DNA of 64,000 bases, taken from assembly GCF_044324875.1 (NCBI RefSeq), contig NZ_CP172185.1. One strand, written 5' to 3'. Each line of letters begins with the position of its first letter. Position 1 is the first letter of the stretch. The notes beneath the pieces are model-generated. The model worked only from the letters and a program-made list of their open reading frames with translations, was not told where the DNA came from and searched no databases. Shown in pieces: positions 32,375-45,283 of the stretch. This DNA comes from Escherichia coli. Its GTDB lineage: Bacteria; Pseudomonadota; Gammaproteobacteria; Enterobacterales; Enterobacteriaceae. The translations under genes were made by a program, and so were the position numbers.

Positions 32375-33373
<999 letters not shown>

Positions 33374-33389
33374 TTTCTTGCGTTATTTT

Positions 33390-33417
33390 CGGCACCTTTT
33401 ATGTAGCGAAGGTGCCG
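33390..33417 (+). terminator. hairpin downstream of cysB
   Basis: CGGCACCTT-ttatgtagcg-AAGGTGCCG 9-bp stem; weak T tract. Confidence 0.45.
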
Positions 33418-33691
33418 GAATATATTCTCTTTTGTTGCTTATTTGTATACCGTGCACAATATTTTTATCCCTCATATTTATAGGGTAAATTACCTGTAAA
33501 GTAGTGTCTAATTACCCGCCTCGCAAACTCCAGTTTTCAAATATCTATTTCAGGTCAAAAGATTGAATTATTCACTGGAGACGATTCGTAAATTCGCTGG
33601 ATTTTTGACTAAAGTTTCTTTAGGATTTGTCTCATCGTATGATTAATTACACCAATCGTTCAACGTCTTGCTGATAAGTGATGCCGATTAT

Positions 33692-33832
33692 ATGAGGTTA
33701 GCAATGCCTTCTGGAAATCAGGAACCCCGCCGGGACCCTGAATTAAAACGCAAAGCCTGGCTGGCGGTATTTCTTGGTTCTGCTCTTTTCTGGGTGGTTG
33801 TCGCACTGCTGATTTGGAAAGTGTGGGGATAA
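33692..33832 (+). CDS. ymiA: small membrane protein YmiA (46 aa)
   Basis: MRLAMPSGNQEPRRDPELKRKAWLAVFLGSALFWVVVALLIWKVWG read from sequence; single TM helix; matches remembered YmiA. Confidence 0.7.
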   Translation: MRLAMPSGNQEPRRDPELKRKAWLAVFLGSALFWVVVALLIWKVWG

Positions 33833-33834
33833 CT

Positions 33835-34002
33835 ATGGTCGGTCAGGAGCAACTGGAGTCGTCACCATTATGTCAGCAAAGTGATGATGAACCAGAAACG
33901 AAACGGGAATGTTCCGTCGTTATTCCAGACGACTGGCAACTAACATCGCAGCAGCAAGCCTTTATAGAACTGTTTGCTGAAGATGATCAGCCGAAACAAT
34001 AA
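33835..34002 (+). CDS. yciX: small acidic protein YciX (55 aa)
   Basis: ATG 2 nt after ymiA stop (GGATAACTATG); translation MVGQEQLESSPLCQQSDDEPE... Confidence 0.7.
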   Translation: MVGQEQLESSPLCQQSDDEPETKRECSVVIPDDWQLTSQQQAFIELFAEDDQPKQ

Positions 34003-34115
34003 TTATCATCATTCTTATTACCCATTTTTAATGAATTAAAGGGCTTTTAATACACCGCAGCAATAACAGGTTGAGTTATCTCAACACAAAGTAATAACCG
34101 TTAAAGGTGTAGCCT

Positions 34116-34211
34116 ATGATCAACACAAATATGAAATATTGGTCCTGGATGGGCGCATTTTCTCTGTCGATGCTCTTCTGGGCCGAACTCCTCTGGATCA
34201 TTACTCACTGA
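34116..34211 (+). CDS. candidate 31-aa hydrophobic small protein (possibly the K-12 small protein in the yciX-acnA gap)
   Basis: SD AAAGGTG 6 nt before ATG; MINTNMKYWSWMGAFSLSMLFWAELLWIITH; intrinsic terminator 8 nt after stop. Confidence 0.45.
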   Translation: MINTNMKYWSWMGAFSLSMLFWAELLWIITH

Positions 34212-34218
34212 TCCCTGA

Positions 34219-34239
34219 CCCCGCTGCGGCGGGGTTTTC
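34219..34239 (+). terminator. intrinsic terminator after small ORF
   Basis: CCCCGC-tgcg-GCGGGG followed by TTTTC. Confidence 0.7.
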
Positions 34240-34374
34240 ATTTGCTTTGCCACAAGGTTTCTCCTCTTTTATCAATTTGGGTTGTTATCAAATCGTTACG
34301 CGATGTTTGTGTTATCTTTAATATTCACCCTGAAGAGAATCAGGGCTTCGCAACCCTGTCATTAAGGAGGAGCT

Positions 34375-37050
34375 ATGTCGTCAACCCTACGAGAAGCCAG
34401 TAAGGACACGTTGCAGGCCAAAGATAAAACTTACCACTACTACAGCCTGCCGCTTGCTGCCAAATCACTGGGCGATATCACCCGTTTGCCTAAGTCACTC
34501 AAAGTTTTGCTCGAAAACCTGCTGCGCTGGCAGGATGGTAACTCGGTTACCGAAGAGGATATCTACGCGCTGGCGGGATGGCTGAAAAATGCCCATGCTG
34601 ACCGTGAAATTGCCTACCGCCCGGCAAGGGTGCTGATGCAGGACTTTACCGGCGTACCTGCCGTTGTTGATCTCGCTGCAATGCGCGAAGCGGTTAAACG
34701 CCTCGGCGGCGATACTGCAAAGGTTAACCCGCTCTCACCGGTCGACCTGGTCATTGACCACTCGGTGACCGTCGATCGTTTTGGTGATGATGAGGCATTT
34801 GAAGAAAACGTACGCCTGGAAATGGAGCGCAACCACGAACGTTATGTGTTCCTGAAATGGGGAAAGCAAGCGTTCAGTCGGTTTAGCGTCGTGCCGCCAG
34901 GCACAGGCATTTGCCATCAGGTTAACCTCGAATATCTCGGCAAAGCAGTGTGGAGCGAATTGCAGGACGGTGAATGGATTGCTTATCCGGATACACTCGT
35001 TGGTACTGACTCGCACACCACCATGATCAACGGCCTTGGCGTGCTGGGGTGGGGCGTTGGTGGGATCGAAGCCGAAGCCGCAATGTTAGGACAGCCGGTT
35101 TCCATGCTTATCCCGGACGTAGTGGGCTTTAAACTCACCGGAAAATTACGTGAAGGTATTACCGCCACAGACCTGGTTCTCACCGTTACCCAAATGCTGC
35201 GCAAACATGGCGTGGTGGGGAAATTCGTCGAATTTTATGGTGATGGGCTGGATTCACTACCGTTGGCGGATCGCGCCACCATTGCCAATATGTCGCCAGA
35301 ATATGGTGCCACCTGTGGCTTCTTCCCAATCGATGCTGTCACCCTCGATTACATGCGTTTAAGCGGGCGCAGCGAAGATCAGGTCGAGTTGGTCGAAAAA
35401 TATGCCAAAGCGCAGGGCATGTGGCGTAACCCGGGCGATGAACCGATTTTTACCAGTACGTTAGAACTGGATATGAATGACGTTGAAGCGAGCCTGGCAG
35501 GGCCAAAACGCCCACAGGATCGCGTTGCACTGCCCGATGTACCAAAAGCATTTGCCGCCAGTAACGAACTGGAAGTAAATGCCACGCATAAAGATCGCCA
35601 GCCGGTCGATTATGTTATGAACGGACATCAGTATCGGTTACCTGATGGCGCGGTGGTCATTGCTGCGATAACGTCGTGCACCAACACCTCTAACCCAAGT
35701 GTGCTGATGGCCGCAGGTTTGCTGGCGAAAAAAGCTGTAACTCTGGGCCTCAAGCGGCAACCGTGGGTCAAAGCGTCGCTGGCACCGGGTTCGAAAGTCG
35801 TTTCTGATTATCTGGCAAAAGCGAAATTGACACCGTATCTCGACGAACTGGGGTTTAACCTTGTGGGATATGGTTGTACCACCTGTATTGGTAACTCTGG
35901 GCCGCTGCCCGATCCTATCGAAACGGCAATCAAAAAAGGCGATTTAACCGTCGGTGCAGTGCTGTCCGGCAACCGTAACTTTGAAGGCCGTATCCATCCG
36001 CTGGTTAAAACCAACTGGCTGGCCTCGCCGCCGCTGGTGGTTGCCTATGCGCTGGCGGGAAATATGAATATCAACCTCGCATCTGAGCCTATCGGCCATG
36101 ATCGCAAAGGCGATCCGGTATATATGAAAGATATCTGGCCATCGGCACAAGAAATTGCCCGTGCGGTAGAACAAGTCTCCACAGAAATGTTCCGTAAAGA
36201 GTACGCAGAAGTTTTTGAAGGCACAGCAGAGTGGAAGGAAATTAACGTCGCACGATCCGATACCTACGGTTGGCAGGAGGATTCAACCTATATTCGCTTA
36301 TCGCCTTTCTTTGATGAAATGCAGGCAACACCAGCACCTGTGGAAGATATTCACTGTGCGCGGATCCTCGCAATGCTTGGGGATTCAGTCACCACTGACC
36401 ATATCTCTCCGGCGGGCAGTATTAAGCCCGACAGCCCAGCGGGTCGATATCTACAAGGCCGGGGTGTTGAGCGAAAAGACTTTAACTCCTACGGTTCGCG
36501 GCGTGGTAACCATGAAGTGATGATGCGCGGCACCTTCGCCAATATTCGCATCCGTAATGAAATGGTGCCTGGCGTTGAAGGGGGGATGACGCGGCATTTA
36601 CCTGACAGCGACGTAGTCTCTATTTATGATGCCGCGATGCGCTATAAGCAGGAGCAAACGCCGCTGGCGGTGATTGCCGGGAAAGAGTATGGATCAGGCT
36701 CCAGCCGTGACTGGGCGGCAAAAGGTCCGCGTCTACTTGGTATTCGTGTTGTGATTGCCGAATCGTTTGAACGAATTCACCGCTCGAATTTAATTGGCAT
36801 GGGCATCCTGCCGCTAGAATTTCCGCAAGGCGTGACGCGTAAAACGTTAGGGCTAATCGGGGAAGAGAAGATTGATATTGTCGATCTGCAAAGTCTACAA
36901 CCCGGCGCGACGGTTCCGGTGACGTTTACGCGCGCGGATGGTAGCCAGGAAGTCGTACCCTGCCGTTGTCGTATCGACACCGCGACGGAGTTGACCTACT
37001 ACCAGAACGACGGCATTTTGCATTATGTCATTCGTAATATGTTGAAGTAA
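34375..37050 (+). CDS. acnA: aconitate hydratase A
   Basis: 891 aa; Fe-S cluster cysteines in aconitase family context. Confidence 0.97.
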
Positions 37051-43297: not shown

Positions 43298-45283
43298 TTA
43301 TGCGCGCTTCAGATAGCGTTTATACCAACGTTCGAAGGCGACGGCGGGCATCGGTTTGGCAAACAAAAATCCTTGCCGCTCATTGATCCCGTTCTTGGTT
43401 AAAAAAGCATCTTCCTTTTTACTCTCCACTCCTTCAGCGATCACCTGAAGATTCAATGCCTGGGCCACAGCGACGATCGCCCGGACCAGCGACTGTGAGA
43501 CAGGTTGTTTGTGAATATCTCGAACAAAAACCTGGTCAAGTTTAATCGCATCGATCGGAAAGCGCGCCAGTTGCGAAAGTGAAGAGTAGCCGGTACCAAA
43601 ATCGTCCAGATGCACTTGCGCACCTAGTTGGCTAAATTGTTGAATAACAGAAAGTGCCAGTTCATCATTCTCAATCAGGCAGCTCTCCGTCAGTTCAACA
43701 TCAATAGGGCAGTATTCAAAATTGAGTTCCTGGAGAACCTGTTTCAGGGCGGTGAAAATGGTTTGATCGGCGAGCTGACGTGCAGAAATGTTTACCGCCA
43801 CTCGCAGGTTAATACCTTTATCCCGCCACTTTGCCACCTGGCGTACGACATCGAGAATCACCCAACGGCCTAAAGGCACAATTAGCCCTGACTCTTCGGC
43901 GTAGGAAATGAAGTCCAACGGTGGAATCAACCCACGTTCAGGTGACTGCCAACGTACTAGTGCTTCCAGACTGCGCACTTCGCCACGCCAGGTGATTTTC
44001 GGTTGATAGTGAATAACCAACTGATCGTTTTCCAGTGCTTTACGCAAGTTGGTATCCAGCCAGAGATATTCAAATACCCGCTGATTCATTTCTGGAGTAA
44101 AAACGCAAAATTGTCCTCGTCCGCCTTCCTTCGCTGTGTACATTGCTGTGTCGGCGTGACGAATAATAGCCGCGCTGTCCGAACCATGTTCGGGAGAGAG
44201 TGAAATACCCACTGAACAGCTGGTATAAACTTCAATTAAACCAATGCGGAAGGGGAGTCGTAAGCGAGTCAAAATTCGTGATGCCATTGCTTCCAGCGCG
44301 CTTTGTGAGGTATTGGATGCCAGTACCAGAAACTCATCGCCACCTGGACGCGCCAACACCTGATCATGTTCGAGACAGCTTAAAATGGCCAATGACACGT
44401 CGCGTAATAGCTGGTCACCAAACAAATGCCCATAAGCGTCGTTGACCTTTTTAAAATTATCCAAATCAAGATACACAACCCCAACTTTATTGTTATCTGC
44501 CTGATTAATGGCGTGATCGATTAACTCCTGCATTGCGTTACGATTCGGCAGTCCGGTGATACTGTCGGTATTTGCCAGAATACGCAGTCGCTCCTGAGCG
44601 CGGCGCTCTTCGGTAATGTCGGTGCCGGAACAGATTAAAAAAATCTCGTTCTTGCCACTGCCGCTGTGGACAAATTTATTGCGAAACAGAAACAGCCGCT
44701 GGCCTTTACGTGTTGGTATCCACAGTTCGACTTCATATGAATTGCCGCTTCGAAAAAATACACGGTTATTGCGCCTGGATGCCGCAGCTTCACGACGGCT
44801 CATAAACAGTTTAAACACGCTTTGCCCAATGACGTCATGTTCTTTCAACCCTGTGTAATCTTCACATAACCGATTGAAGCGTTGGATATTCCCCCGGCTG
44901 TCGAGAATCACTATTGCGGAATGTGCTTCAGAAACTACCTGCTCAGCAAAGGAAAGCCCGTGTGATAAATCACGAGCAACTGCTGGTGTGTCATGCCATG
45001 CAGACGCGTTGCCAGCCCATTCCCGTTTATTGATTTTTCGTCCTACCAGATGCACAGAAAGATCACTTTCATCGACGGTCAGACTCATCATCAGGCTGGA
45101 GGTGATGACCGTCATTTCCCTGATGCGAGCAGCCTGTTCGGCAGATAACTGCAACGTACGTTCAGGTTCTGTGGTTTCGGTGGTAGAAAAGCGCAAAACA
45201 TCGCTGCTTTCCGTTAACCGCCAGTATGGATTGTGCGATCCGAGAAAGTTGTACAACGTTGTGGACTCCCTAACGGTTTTCAT
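43298..45283 (-). CDS. pdeR: c-di-GMP phosphodiesterase PdeR (Gmr/YciR), PAS-GGDEF-EAL
   Basis: 661 aa; GGDEF motif (RPGGDEFLV) and EAL motif (EALVRW) read in translation. Confidence 0.95.
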   Translation of the reverse strand: MKTVRESTTLYNFLGSHNPYWRLTESSDVLRFSTTETTEPERTLQLSAEQAARIREMTVITSSLMMSLTVDESDLSVHLVGRKINKREWAGNASAWHDTPAVARDLSHGLSFAEQVVSEAHSAIVILDSRGNIQRFNRLCEDYTGLKEHDVIGQSVFKLFMSRREAAASRRNNRVFFRSGNSYEVELWIPTRKGQRLFLFRNKFVHSGSGKNEIFLICSGTDITEERRAQERLRILANTDSITGLPNRNAMQELIDHAINQADNNKVGVVYLDLDNFKKVNDAYGHLFGDQLLRDVSLAILSCLEHDQVLARPGGDEFLVLASNTSQSALEAMASRILTRLRLPFRIGLIEVYTSCSVGISLSPEHGSDSAAIIRHADTAMYTAKEGGRGQFCVFTPEMNQRVFEYLWLDTNLRKALENDQLVIHYQPKITWRGEVRSLEALVRWQSPERGLIPPLDFISYAEESGLIVPLGRWVILDVVRQVAKWRDKGINLRVAVNISARQLADQTIFTALKQVLQELNFEYCPIDVELTESCLIENDELALSVIQQFSQLGAQVHLDDFGTGYSSLSQLARFPIDAIKLDQVFVRDIHKQPVSQSLVRAIVAVAQALNLQVIAEGVESKKEDAFLTKNGINERQGFLFAKPMPAVAFERWYKRYLKRA

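Follow-up and report, generated by a model that had tools for sequence, protein, structure and literature searches.

The DNA between cysB and acnA in Escherichia coli most likely forms a transcription unit in its own right: an operon of three small-protein genes, ymiA, yciX and ymiC, flanked by cysB and acnA and confined to the Enterobacteriaceae. We studied it within a 64,000-nucleotide stretch of an E. coli genome ('the window', contig NZ_CP172185.1). Read directly, the sequence holds three small open reading frames (ORFs) on the plus strand, in the order given, between the cysB stop at position 33373 and the acnA ATG at 34375. These are genuine protein-coding genes under purifying selection: pooled dN/dS ratios are 0.10–0.19, and each of the three displays codon-position periodicity. 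RefSeq annotates them all. The gene identities that the original prediction assigned to ymiA and yciX are upheld by RefSeq and by the matches of YmiA to Pfam and NCBIfam models, and the small-protein cluster it placed ahead of acnA is real, its 31-amino acid (aa) member being ymiC. Where the prediction called the cluster poorly characterized, it was out of date. The operon, its low-Mg2+/PhoQ induction and membrane localization are already known; induction, operon structure, localization and an overexpression phenotype have been published (PMC11429745), as have an RcsB box at the transcription start site (TSS; PMC7913699) and the lack of a separate ymiC promoter (10.1101/2020.05.05.079178).

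Of 5426 complete E. coli genomes, 5421 carry the 1-kb ymiA–yciX–ymiC stretch. We compared synteny and spacing at 79 loci from other Enterobacteriaceae, and give identities to E. coli as means over 47 non-redundant Enterobacteriaceae loci. Three lineages (loci L053, L068 and L075) have lost all or part of yciX, and ymiC is missing from Kluyvera, Pseudescherichia and some Citrobacter. The three genes are thus not an obligate unit.

Upstream of ymiA lies a spacer of 318 bp with a G+C content of 35.2% (versus 50.4% for the window), which ranks it among the lowest 0.5% of windows of that length. An AT-rich leader of about 320 bp had been proposed here; its size and composition stand, but most of it is not RNA leader, consisting instead of a cysB terminator, a spacer and a regulatory block. 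The first of these, picked up by a terminator scan at 33387–33420 on the plus strand, resembles an intrinsic terminator: a hairpin 13 pairs long, with moderately conserved stem columns and a T-rich tail behind it. That part of the 'leader' belongs to cysB and not to ymiA. The distal spacer, about 80 bp, is unconserved (identity 0.38). The conserved non-coding block occupies 33498–33634 (plus strand), some 135 bp from about −137 to +1 of the inferred ymiA TSS, and combines a mean identity of 0.75 with an absence of three-nucleotide periodicity (0.71/0.78/0.75). An AtoC ChIP site has been placed inside it, at 33505–33524 (PMC3118216), and the region upstream of ymiA has been listed as a 'promoter island' (PMC3661553). 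The block also contains an inverted repeat, AAATTCGCTGGATTT, at 33590–33604.

At the downstream end of the block, on the plus strand, stands TAGGATTTGTCTCA (33621–33634). It conforms to the RcsB-box pattern TN(G/A)GAN4TC(T/C)NA, overlaps a candidate −10 hexamer, TAGGAT (33621–33626), and ends at the inferred TSS, about 33634. The block TTAGGATTT(G/A)TCTCA is nearly invariant among the 47 loci. The GAD box, TTAGGATTTTGTTATTTAAA, starts with TTAGGATTT, which consists of the first 9 nt of TAGGATTTGTCTCA and the T preceding them. As an operator of the RcsB (FixJ/NarL) family, TAGGATTTGTCTCA is a candidate site that would occupy a repressing position at the TSS, with RcsB alone, YjjQ, GadE–RcsB and BglJ–RcsB as candidate binders in E. 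coli. Salmonella SL1344 has the identical motif between −13 and +1 relative to its mapped ymiA TSS, and expression of RcsB there lowers ymiA transcript levels (log2 fold change −1.10; PMC7913699). By homology, transcription of ymiA in E. coli would start near 33634, and we infer that its −10 hexamer lies within an RcsB-type box that hardly varies. A candidate −35, TGGATT (33598–33603, plus strand), is suggested by its position, 17 bp upstream of TAGGAT and within the invariant string cTGGATTTT.

From such a start, the 5'-untranslated region (UTR) would run on the plus strand from 33635 to 33691, about 58 nt to the ATG at 33692, or about 70 nt to the ATG at 33704. Its mean identity is 0.65, without periodicity. 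A structured RNA leader or riboswitch ahead of ymiA was considered, and rejected on three results. Folding of the 5'UTR gave a minimum free energy z-score of +0.58; RNAalifold yielded −1.04 kcal/mol (among the 47 loci, about −1 kcal/mol for 33634–33715 and also for 33560–33715); and Rfam in E-value mode returned nothing for the 5'UTR except a chance snoRNA match at E = 0.98.

How PhoQ acts on this promoter is less straightforward. Low-Mg2+ induction originates in the region upstream of ymiA and depends on PhoQ (PMC11429745), but between 33374 and 33704 no PhoP box, (T/G)GTTTA-N5-(T/G)GTTTA, is found with two or fewer mismatches. At three mismatches the pattern matches at 33606–33622 and 33617–33633, equivalent to −28 to −12 and −17 to −1 of the inferred TSS; at this stringency it is barely enriched in the window (187 matches versus 137 expected). 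Direct control by PhoP is unsupported, since these matches overlap the inferred −10 and TSS, a non-activating position. Because a canonical box is lacking, control by PhoQP is probably indirect or non-canonical. Other regulators have been connected with the locus as well: an OmpR effect in Klebsiella (PMC10783089), a claim of membership in the Cpx regulon (PMC6374596) and the listing of YjjQ as a regulator (PMC10100675). On the mechanism we propose, the 135 bp or so of conserved upstream DNA would integrate these envelope-stress regulators—RcsB, YjjQ, OmpR, Cpx, AtoC and PhoQP.

The first gene, ymiA, extends on the plus strand from the ATG at 33692 to the TAA at 33830–33832 and encodes 46 aa (MRLAMPSGNQEPRRDPELKRKAWLAVFLGSALFWVVVALLIWKVWG). 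The protein sequence contains a single hydrophobic stretch, in line with the single transmembrane segment predicted earlier, and a GFP–YmiA fusion localizes to the membrane (PMC11429745). YmiA belongs to Pfam family PF22868 (E = 5e-37, 125.9 bits against a cut-off of 27) and to NCBIfam NF000536 (E = 4e-28, 96.8 bits against a cut-off of 30), the latter match covering residues 5–46 in a model that begins at residue 5. Its dN/dS is 0.10, and identities at the three codon positions are 0.83/0.90/0.48. Codon 1 is ATG at 51 of the 79 loci, whereas codon 5 is ATG, accompanied by GAGG, at 77. To judge from this pattern, the conserved start is the second ATG, at 33704 on the plus strand, which opens a 42-aa core and has GAGG (33694–33697) 6 nt upstream; the annotated starts, giving 46 or 53 aa, are not the conserved ones. 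Ribosome profiling in E. coli favors the MRLAMP start (10.1101/511675), and PMC4909307 is a further source on the start codon. Ribosomes would begin ymiA at 33692 in E. coli, or else at the conserved ATG at 33704. In an AlphaFold2 model of YmiA fused to YciX, YmiA forms one long helix (residues 12–41, pLDDT about 90) with KRK and RR on its N-terminal side, and the basic N-terminal tail is predicted to face the cytoplasm (N-in, single-pass).

Ribosomes finishing ymiA would terminate 2 nt ahead of the yciX ATG, and the UGG GGN codons at the end of ymiA would serve as the yciX Shine–Dalgarno (SD) sequence. In E. coli the junction, at 33824–33837 on the plus strand, reads TGGGGA (the W–G codons), TAA, CT, ATG. 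The TAA-CT-ATG spacing reported earlier is confirmed, and both the spacing and the TGGGGN motif within ymiA are kept throughout the family: ymiA ends in TGGGGN at 75 of the 76 loci that have yciX. The gap from stop to start is 2 nt at 57 loci, 1 nt at 9, 0 nt at 5, 4 nt at 3 and −1 nt at 1, so that 75 of 76 lie between −1 and 4 nt. Spacing and SD arrangement are those of a coupled pair. Well-known pairs of this kind—trpE–trpD, trpB–trpA and those of ribosomal protein operons—likewise have stops and starts separated by 0–4 nt and an SD inside the upstream ORF. The resemblance rests on sequence, and it has a limit: the yciX SD is free of any conserved occluding structure, and reinitiation is not enforced. 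RNAalifold on 47 loci detected no conserved RNA structure across the junction, and with its SD not sequestered in this way yciX could equally well be initiated independently. YciX is probably made in step with YmiA, by termination–reinitiation or by close-range initiation. Metagenome matches that look like YmiA–YciX fusion proteins (P0003, P0010 and P0041) are accounted for by the loss of 20 nt between GGTT repeats within the sequence for the YmiA transmembrane segment; the deletion junction is found in none of the 5426 complete E. coli genomes, and the fusion variant is accordingly rare or an artefact.

Beyond yciX, the transcript would run through a poorly conserved, AT-rich spacer (34003–34046, plus strand; mean identity 0.30) into ymiC, and stop at a covarying terminator before acnA. 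The ymiC gene (34116–34211, plus strand) encodes a small membrane protein of 31 aa that belongs to Pfam family PF23694 (E = 4.5e-25, 87.5 bits against a cut-off of 27) and NCBIfam NF041484 (E = 1.2e-18, 66.3 bits against a cut-off of 42). It has a dN/dS of 0.17 and a periodicity of 0.60/0.68/0.43. GFP–YmiC is membrane-localized, and induction of ymiC depends on PhoQ (PMC11429745). YmiA and YmiC are both small inner-membrane proteins.

The same segment matches the Rfam family STnc180 (RF02079) at 34043–34245 on the plus strand, over the entire model (1–208 of 208) and with 201.8 bits against a gathering threshold of 50. STnc180 was described in Salmonella as a candidate small RNA from Hfq co-immunoprecipitation, at the same place, between ymiA/yciX and acnA. 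In the window, the segment comprises a conserved 5' motif, TACACCGCAGCAATA (34051–34065), a hairpin (34070–34085) whose arms, judged by eye, vary among genera yet stay complementary, the ymiC SD, GGTG (34106–34109), and the complete ymiC ORF together with the operon terminator, in which it differs from a dedicated riboregulator.

Might the segment nonetheless be a separate base-pairing RNA, released by processing or made from its own, possibly Fur-controlled, promoter, instead of YmiC or besides it? We think this unlikely, though it has more than one point in its favor. STnc180 is an Rfam small-RNA family recovered with Hfq (PMC2515195); the conserved 5' motif TACACCNCAGCAATA persists even at loci from which yciX has been deleted; a Fur-box cluster has been predicted immediately upstream, at about 33998–34019 or −371 of acnA (PMC2189734); and in the Rfam consensus the ymiC SD, GGUGU, is paired to ACACC. 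Against this, the ymiC ORF is under purifying selection. Northern blots with the STnc180 probe gave bands of 500–2000 nt, called processed mRNA, and no discrete small RNA (Sittka 2008, PMC2515195). Reporters fused to the DNA immediately preceding ymiC show negligible promoter activity (PMC11429745), and ymiC is placed on the 3'UTR of yciX, with no independent promoter according to differential RNA-seq (dRNA-seq) as cited in 10.1101/2020.05.05.079178. Fur control of ymiC was considered and set aside, since no part of the locus is less conserved than the one holding the predicted cluster, whose sequence is not kept outside Escherichia. The anti-SD helix was likewise set aside for want of compensatory changes: Cedecea keeps UACAC though its SD is UGAG. 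STnc180 is best taken as ymiC mRNA in all essentials, a 3' portion of the operon transcript.

The operon ends at 34217–34245 on the plus strand with GACCCCGC-TGCG-GCGGGGTT and a T tract, upstream of the proximal acnA promoter. A terminator scan detected this element, and tested as a named structure it has the properties of a Rho-independent terminator. Across 22 genera, 82% of the cells in the stem pair, versus 32–57% when partners are slid; five of the seven pairs change on both sides, and the 13 compensatory cells were reached by none of 500 shuffles. RNAalifold on MAFFT alignments gave no structure for either the ymiC leader or the terminator, because variable loops misalign the stems.

The middle gene, yciX, lies at 33835–34002 on the plus strand (ATG at 33835, TAA at 34000–34002) and encodes 55 aa. 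It would be possible to regard it as an orphan of Escherichia, or as a spurious ORF that is open only since its DNA carries regulatory signals for acnA. A word-indexed search of 5.8 billion proteins returned YciX matches from Escherichia and Shigella only, and an exhaustive phmmer search just 24 matches. There is no Pfam or NCBIfam model for the E. coli protein, and codon periodicity is absent from codons 1–28. These points notwithstanding, we rate the orphan interpretation very unlikely. With tblastn, an intact, syntenic yciX ORF of 49–59 aa was found after ymiA at 76 of the 79 Enterobacteriaceae loci, with seven invariant residues: W34, L36, Q40, F43, I44, F47 and K54. These belong to a C-terminal motif, [IV]P-x-x-W-x-L-[TS]-x-x-Q-x-x-F-I-x-x-F-(acidic)-KKQ. 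The dN/dS of the C-terminal half is 0.10, with synonymous change saturated, versus 0.32 for the N-terminal half, and at codons 29–55 the periodicity is clear (0.68/0.77/0.45). Taken together, the low ratio, the periodicity and the saturated synonymous change indicate that it is the protein, rather than the DNA, that is constrained.

YciX, in short, occurs family-wide and has a defined motif at its C-terminus, yet Pfam and NCBIfam have no model for it. Pfam searches with all 41 orthologues were empty, a profile search of the PDB had a best E-value of 0.19, which is not meaningful, and the literature accessible to us yielded no direct protein-level evidence for YciX. The N-terminal 30 or so residues are hypervariable and predicted to be disordered; AlphaFold2 folds a single helix (residues 38–48, pLDDT 82–88) and leaves the remainder unstructured. 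We predict a soluble, mostly disordered protein whose sole constrained part is a short, amphipathic helix motif at the C-terminus, which suggests a peptide-like ligand of some partner. The acidity attributed to the 55-aa YciX holds for E. coli (pI 4.05, net charge −10.5), but it is a peculiarity of Escherichia and not a trait of the family, the Enterobacter and Kluyvera orthologues having a pI of about 9. If the partner is YmiA, the models do not reveal it: joined to YmiA by a linker, with 39 paired orthologues, YciX brought no gain (pTM 0.27; this is a weak test), and its helix scored a pLDDT of 74–80, versus 82–88 alone.

It is extremely unlikely that the whole region is no more than an extended acnA 5'UTR, made from P1 (the distal promoter of acnA) or from that of ymiA, with small ORFs that are untranslated or incidental. 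P1 is said to have been located by Cunningham, Gruer & Guest in 1997 some 407 bp upstream of acnA. That would presumably be near 33968, inside yciX, as also in RegulonDB. If P1 does lie there, some transcripts would read through the terminator into acnA, and the 500–2000-nt species seen with the STnc180 probe (PMC2515195) could be read in the same sense. This interpretation is already largely refuted, however. The three ORFs show periodicity and dN/dS ratios of 0.10–0.19; ribosome profiling and fusions reveal both YmiA and YmiC, and mass spectrometry has found YmiA as well (PMC12529367). The conserved intrinsic terminator between ymiC and acnA implies that the cluster is not just acnA 5'UTR. 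Moreover, acnA has a highly conserved promoter region of its own: the proximal promoter and 5'UTR, at 34268–34374 on the plus strand, form a separate unit with a mean identity of 0.81 and no periodicity.

Nor is it at all probable that the locus is toxin–antitoxin-like, with YmiA as a type-I-toxin-like peptide that YciX or an antisense RNA would neutralize: YmiA is indeed small, hydrophobic and predicted to be single-pass, and its overexpression causes a lag of 8–10 h and elongated cells, dependent on the start codon, but many small membrane proteins give similar lags when overexpressed (PMC11429745), YmiA is present at 1000–3000 copies per cell in normal growth, as measured by parallel reaction monitoring (PRM) mass spectrometry (PMC12529367), the gene is single-copy at one conserved, syntenic chromosomal position family-wide with a dN/dS of 0.10, some lineages that keep ymiA have lost YciX, no Rfam antitoxin matches, and no antisense promoter is convincing, the sole promoter-like site on the opposite strand being a 9-of-12 match at 34031–34002.

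The small-protein operon that we favor has its closest counterparts among genes induced through PhoQP. Like the single-pass proteins MgrB, MgtS and PmrR, YmiA (predicted to be single-pass) and YmiC are small inner-membrane proteins whose induction at low Mg2+ depends on PhoQ; like mgtS–mgtT and yriA–yriB, where the second ORF is closely spaced or overlaps, the ymiA locus is a tiny operon; and other PhoQP-induced small membrane proteins, too, delay growth when overexpressed (all PMC11429745). It differs from the MgrB, MgtS and PmrR group in that its promoter has no canonical PhoP box and its second gene specifies a soluble, disordered protein rather than a membrane peptide. MgrB, MgtS and PmrR act, respectively, on PhoQ, on MgtA/PitA and on LpxT, whereas YmiA, YciX and YmiC have no known partner. 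Single deletions of ymiA and of ymiC have no phenotype (PMC11429745). Speculatively, the operon serves as a stress-induced membrane module that modulates a larger envelope or division protein, a role consistent with the longer lag and the cell elongation that follow YmiA overexpression.

A more specific version of this idea is possible, but we hold it only tentatively, and on balance doubt it: that a membrane anchor, YmiA, and a cytosolic disordered protein, YciX, are made by coupled synthesis as the two parts of a conserved module, in which the invariant C-terminal helix of YciX (W-x-L-T-x-x-Q-x-x-F-I-x-x-F) is a short linear motif that docks with a larger envelope, division or signaling protein, under a promoter that integrates Rcs, PhoQP, EnvZ/OmpR and Cpx.

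The value of this work as discovery is small, as the genes already carry annotations and the operon has been described in print; as curation its value is modest, and three points stand out. YciX, which is no Escherichia orphan, lacks a family model; the annotated start of ymiA is not that of the conserved 42-aa core; and STnc180 amounts in essence to ymiC mRNA. The regulatory block of about 135 bp is as conserved as coding sequence, and makes a good substrate for learning how envelope-stress systems converge on one operon. If the two-part module exists, YciX would be an unrecognized family missed by domain databases and word-indexed searches alike; and if its motif binds a specific partner, it would be another case of a small protein regulating a larger machine.

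The genes in the window run topA, cysB, ymiA, yciX, ymiC, acnA and ribA, the last on the minus strand. Read from the sequence, cysB ends at 33373; ymiA (46 codons) extends from an ATG at 33692 to the TAA at 33830–33832, and yciX (55 codons) from an ATG at 33835, just CT beyond that stop, to the TAA at 34000–34002; the 31-codon ymiC ORF occupies 34116–34211, and acnA starts at 34375. The original prediction gave this same arrangement—a 46-aa YmiA, TAA-CT-ATG, a 55-aa YciX, and a 31-aa ORF before acnA—and both the sequence and RefSeq, whose labels are 'YmiA family putative membrane protein', 'protein YciX' and 'small membrane protein YmiC', bear it out. The genes were correctly identified, and the finding is already known; the comment that the cluster is poorly characterised is partly outdated, as the operon, PhoQ induction and localisation have been published. 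Of 5426 complete E. coli genomes, 5421 have the 1-kb cysB–acnA spacer, 5382 of them with at least 80% of it covered.

YmiA and YmiC emerged from ribosome profiling at low Mg2+, and the same work established that both are membrane proteins, by GFP fusion, and that the region 5' of ymiA drives PhoQ-dependent transcription; activity of the region directly 5' of ymiC was negligible, and the authors therefore name a ymiA-yciX-ymiC operon (PMC11429745). Deletions gave no phenotype there, and overexpression of YmiA caused a long lag and longer cells in a start-codon-dependent manner. By targeted mass spectrometry, YmiA is present at 1000–3000 copies per cell (PMC12529367).

Eighty loci were collected by YmiA similarity, one genome per species, of which 79 belong to the Enterobacteriaceae (Escherichia, Citrobacter, Salmonella, Enterobacter, Lelliottia, Leclercia, Kosakonia, Trabulsiella, Cedecea, Kluyvera and others); per-base conservation was computed over 47 non-redundant loci, and dN/dS was pooled by the Nei-Gojobori method. 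The dN/dS values, rough because synonymous change is close to saturated (pS about 0.7), are 0.10 for ymiA (identity at codon positions 1/2/3 of 0.83/0.90/0.48), 0.17 for ymiC (0.60/0.68/0.43) and 0.19 for yciX as a whole, made up of 0.32 for codons 1–28 (0.41/0.39/0.39) and 0.10 for codons 29–55 (0.68/0.77/0.45). On these sequence comparisons, all three ORFs are under selection. They do not form an obligate set: yciX is partially deleted in S. enterica subsp. arizonae and cleanly absent from two other genera, where the ymiC leader lies directly 3' of ymiA, and ymiC is missing from Kluyvera, Pseudescherichia and some Citrobacter. Lineage-specific loss was seen at comparison loci L053 (arizonae), L068 and L075 (the two clean absences), and at L045, L064, L066 and L074–L080.

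YmiA and YmiC match models of their own (Pfam PF22868 and NCBIfam NF000536; Pfam PF23694 and NCBIfam NF041484), and YciX matched none in Pfam or NCBIfam. A word-indexed protein search with YciX gave matches in Escherichia and Shigella only, exhaustive phmmer only 24 matches, and tblastn on the syntenic loci an intact ORF of 49–59 aa directly after ymiA in 76 of 79. Judged by synteny, YciX is not an orphan. What is conserved in it is the motif [IV]P-x-x-W-x-L-[TS]-x-x-Q-x-x-F-I-x-x-F, with acidic residues and KKQ after it; W34, L36, Q40, F43, I44, F47 and K54 are invariant. The protein had been called acidic, and in E. coli it is (pI 4.05), but the N-terminal half is acidic in Escherichia only, and rich in Lys and Arg elsewhere. 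AlphaFold2, with 41 orthologues, left residues 1–30 disordered and returned a single confident helix at 38–48; this C-terminal helix might let YciX act as a peptide-like ligand. A YmiA–YciX complex gained no support when the two were modelled by AlphaFold2 as a paired linker fusion.

yciX starts 2 nt after the ymiA stop in 57 loci, with gaps of 1 nt in nine, 0 in five, 4 in three and −1 in one. The 3' end of ymiA reads TGGGGN in 75 of 76 loci, and so places a G-rich SD 5–6 nt 5' of the yciX ATG; through this embedded SD and the 2-nt junction, translation of the two genes may be coupled. Some metagenome-derived proteins (P0003, P0010 and P0041) are YmiA–YciX fusions. They are accounted for by loss, at 33775–33800, of 20 nt between a pair of GGTT repeats within the ymiA transmembrane segment, which shifts reading to the frame of yciX. 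None of the 5426 complete E. coli genomes carries the deletion junction, which makes the variant either rare or an assembly artefact.

Where YmiA begins has been disputed, and annotations of 42, 46 and 53 aa stand side by side in databases. Only 51 of 79 loci have ATG at codon 1 of the annotated ORF (33692), the others having ACG, AAG, GAG or GTG; an ATG at 33704, with GAGG 6 nt 5' of it, is kept in 77 of 79, which makes a 42-aa core, the part spanned by the NCBIfam model, the universally conserved product. A third in-frame ATG, seven codons upstream, occurs in 64 of 79 loci, with CTG in its place in E. coli. MRLAMP is the start favoured by Weaver et al. from ribosome profiling (10.1101/511675), and TetRP remapped the start (PMC4909307); on the profiling evidence, 33692 may be an additional, or the preferred, start in E. 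coli.

The AT-rich region of about 320 bp reported 3' of cysB measures 318 bp and, at 35.2% G+C against 50.4% for the window, ranks among the 0.5% of 318-bp windows poorest in G+C. It had been termed a long leader: the length and AT-richness hold, but most of it is regulatory DNA, and the putative 5'UTR is about 58 nt. The cysB terminator and an unconserved spacer (33374–33497; mean identity 0.38) are followed by a conserved block of about 135 bp (33498–33634; 0.75), non-coding and without 3-nt periodicity, which matches the ymiA coding sequence (0.73) in conservation, and then by the putative 5'UTR (33635–33691; 0.65), in which folding analyses found no structure. The start of transcription was placed at about 33634 by transfer of the Salmonella TSS, whence the 58 nt. 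TAGGATTTGTCTCA, at 33621–33634, ends on this putative +1, and the motif lies 36 nt 5' of the Salmonella ATG, matching the published table (PMC7913699). The mapped Salmonella TSS has an RcsB box over it, from −13 to +1, and RcsB expression lowers ymiA there (PMC7913699); an RcsB-type operator would thus lie over the −10 and +1 here, too, with TAGGAT a candidate −10 and TGGATT (33598–33603) a candidate weak −35. A near-palindrome, AAATTCGCTGGATTT (33590–33604), is centred near −37 within the block.

No canonical PhoP box was found in the leader; the PhoQ dependence in the literature is therefore likely to be indirect, or to act via a non-canonical site. The best PhoP-box-like match of the whole window, GGTTTAATTGAAGTTTA (44226–44242, minus strand, one mismatch), is inside a 661-aa minus-strand ORF (43298–45283) and is probably chance. 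The spacer is one of 78 'promoter islands' (PMC3661553) and carries an AtoC ChIP signal (PMC3118216); YjjQ is listed as a regulator (PMC10100675), a Cpx regulon list includes yciX (PMC6374596), and a Klebsiella ompR mutant raised its YmiA-family gene by a log2 FC of 2.59, the highest increase in the quoted gene list (PMC10783089). An experimental-evolution study describes recurrent low-frequency polymorphisms in the cysB/ymiA spacer at −182 and −178 of ymiA (PMC13306010), corresponding to about 33510–33514, inside the conserved TAATTACCC block; treated and control populations alike show them, so they may have been there from the start or reflect mapping noise.

Rfam RF02079 (STnc180), catalogued as a Salmonella sRNA, matches 34043–34245 on the plus strand with 201.8 bits. 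This 'sRNA' comprises the ymiC leader, the complete ORF and the operon terminator, and is effectively an mRNA segment for a selected 31-aa protein. Its leader holds a conserved motif, TACACCNCAGCAATA (34051–34065), kept even where yciX is deleted, and a conserved hairpin (34070–34085) whose arms vary by genus with complementarity kept. TACACC occurs in conserved contexts at 33648–33653 (TTAATTACACCAATCG) and 34051–34056 (TTTAATACACCGCAGC), about 10–15 nt into the ymiA 5'UTR and the STnc180/ymiC leader, respectively, and the second copy persists in both loci that cleanly lack yciX. Pairing of TACACC with the ymiC SD, drawn in the Rfam consensus, gains no support from compensatory changes in Cedecea. 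A strong Fur-box cluster predicted at −371 of acnA (PMC2189734) is AATAATTATCATCATTCTTATT (33998–34019), at the yciX stop; conservation across the locus is lowest here (34003–34046; 0.30), and the cluster therefore looks Escherichia-specific or non-functional.

At the terminator (34217–34245), 82% of cells pair, against 32–57% in slid controls, and its 13 compensatory cells were equalled in none of 500 shuffles; covariation thus supports a conserved terminator upstream of acnA. The acnA proximal promoter and 5'UTR (34268–34374) average 0.81 identity, above all three small ORFs, with conserved stretches that include TTATCAATTTGGGTTGTTATCAAA and TGTTTGTGTTATCTTTAATATT. With a covarying terminator and, beyond it, a separate conserved acnA promoter region, the cluster is its own transcription unit. 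A distal acnA promoter, P1, reportedly placed about 407 bp upstream of acnA by Cunningham et al. in 1997, would fall near 33968, among the conserved yciX codons for F-I-E-L-F; should P1 be real, transcripts from it would need to read past the terminator.

That YmiA and YciX make up a conserved anchor-plus-motif module under multi-system envelope-stress control is a tentative proposal, less likely than not. To speculate further, the product of the cluster might, under stress, modulate a protein of the envelope or of cell division.
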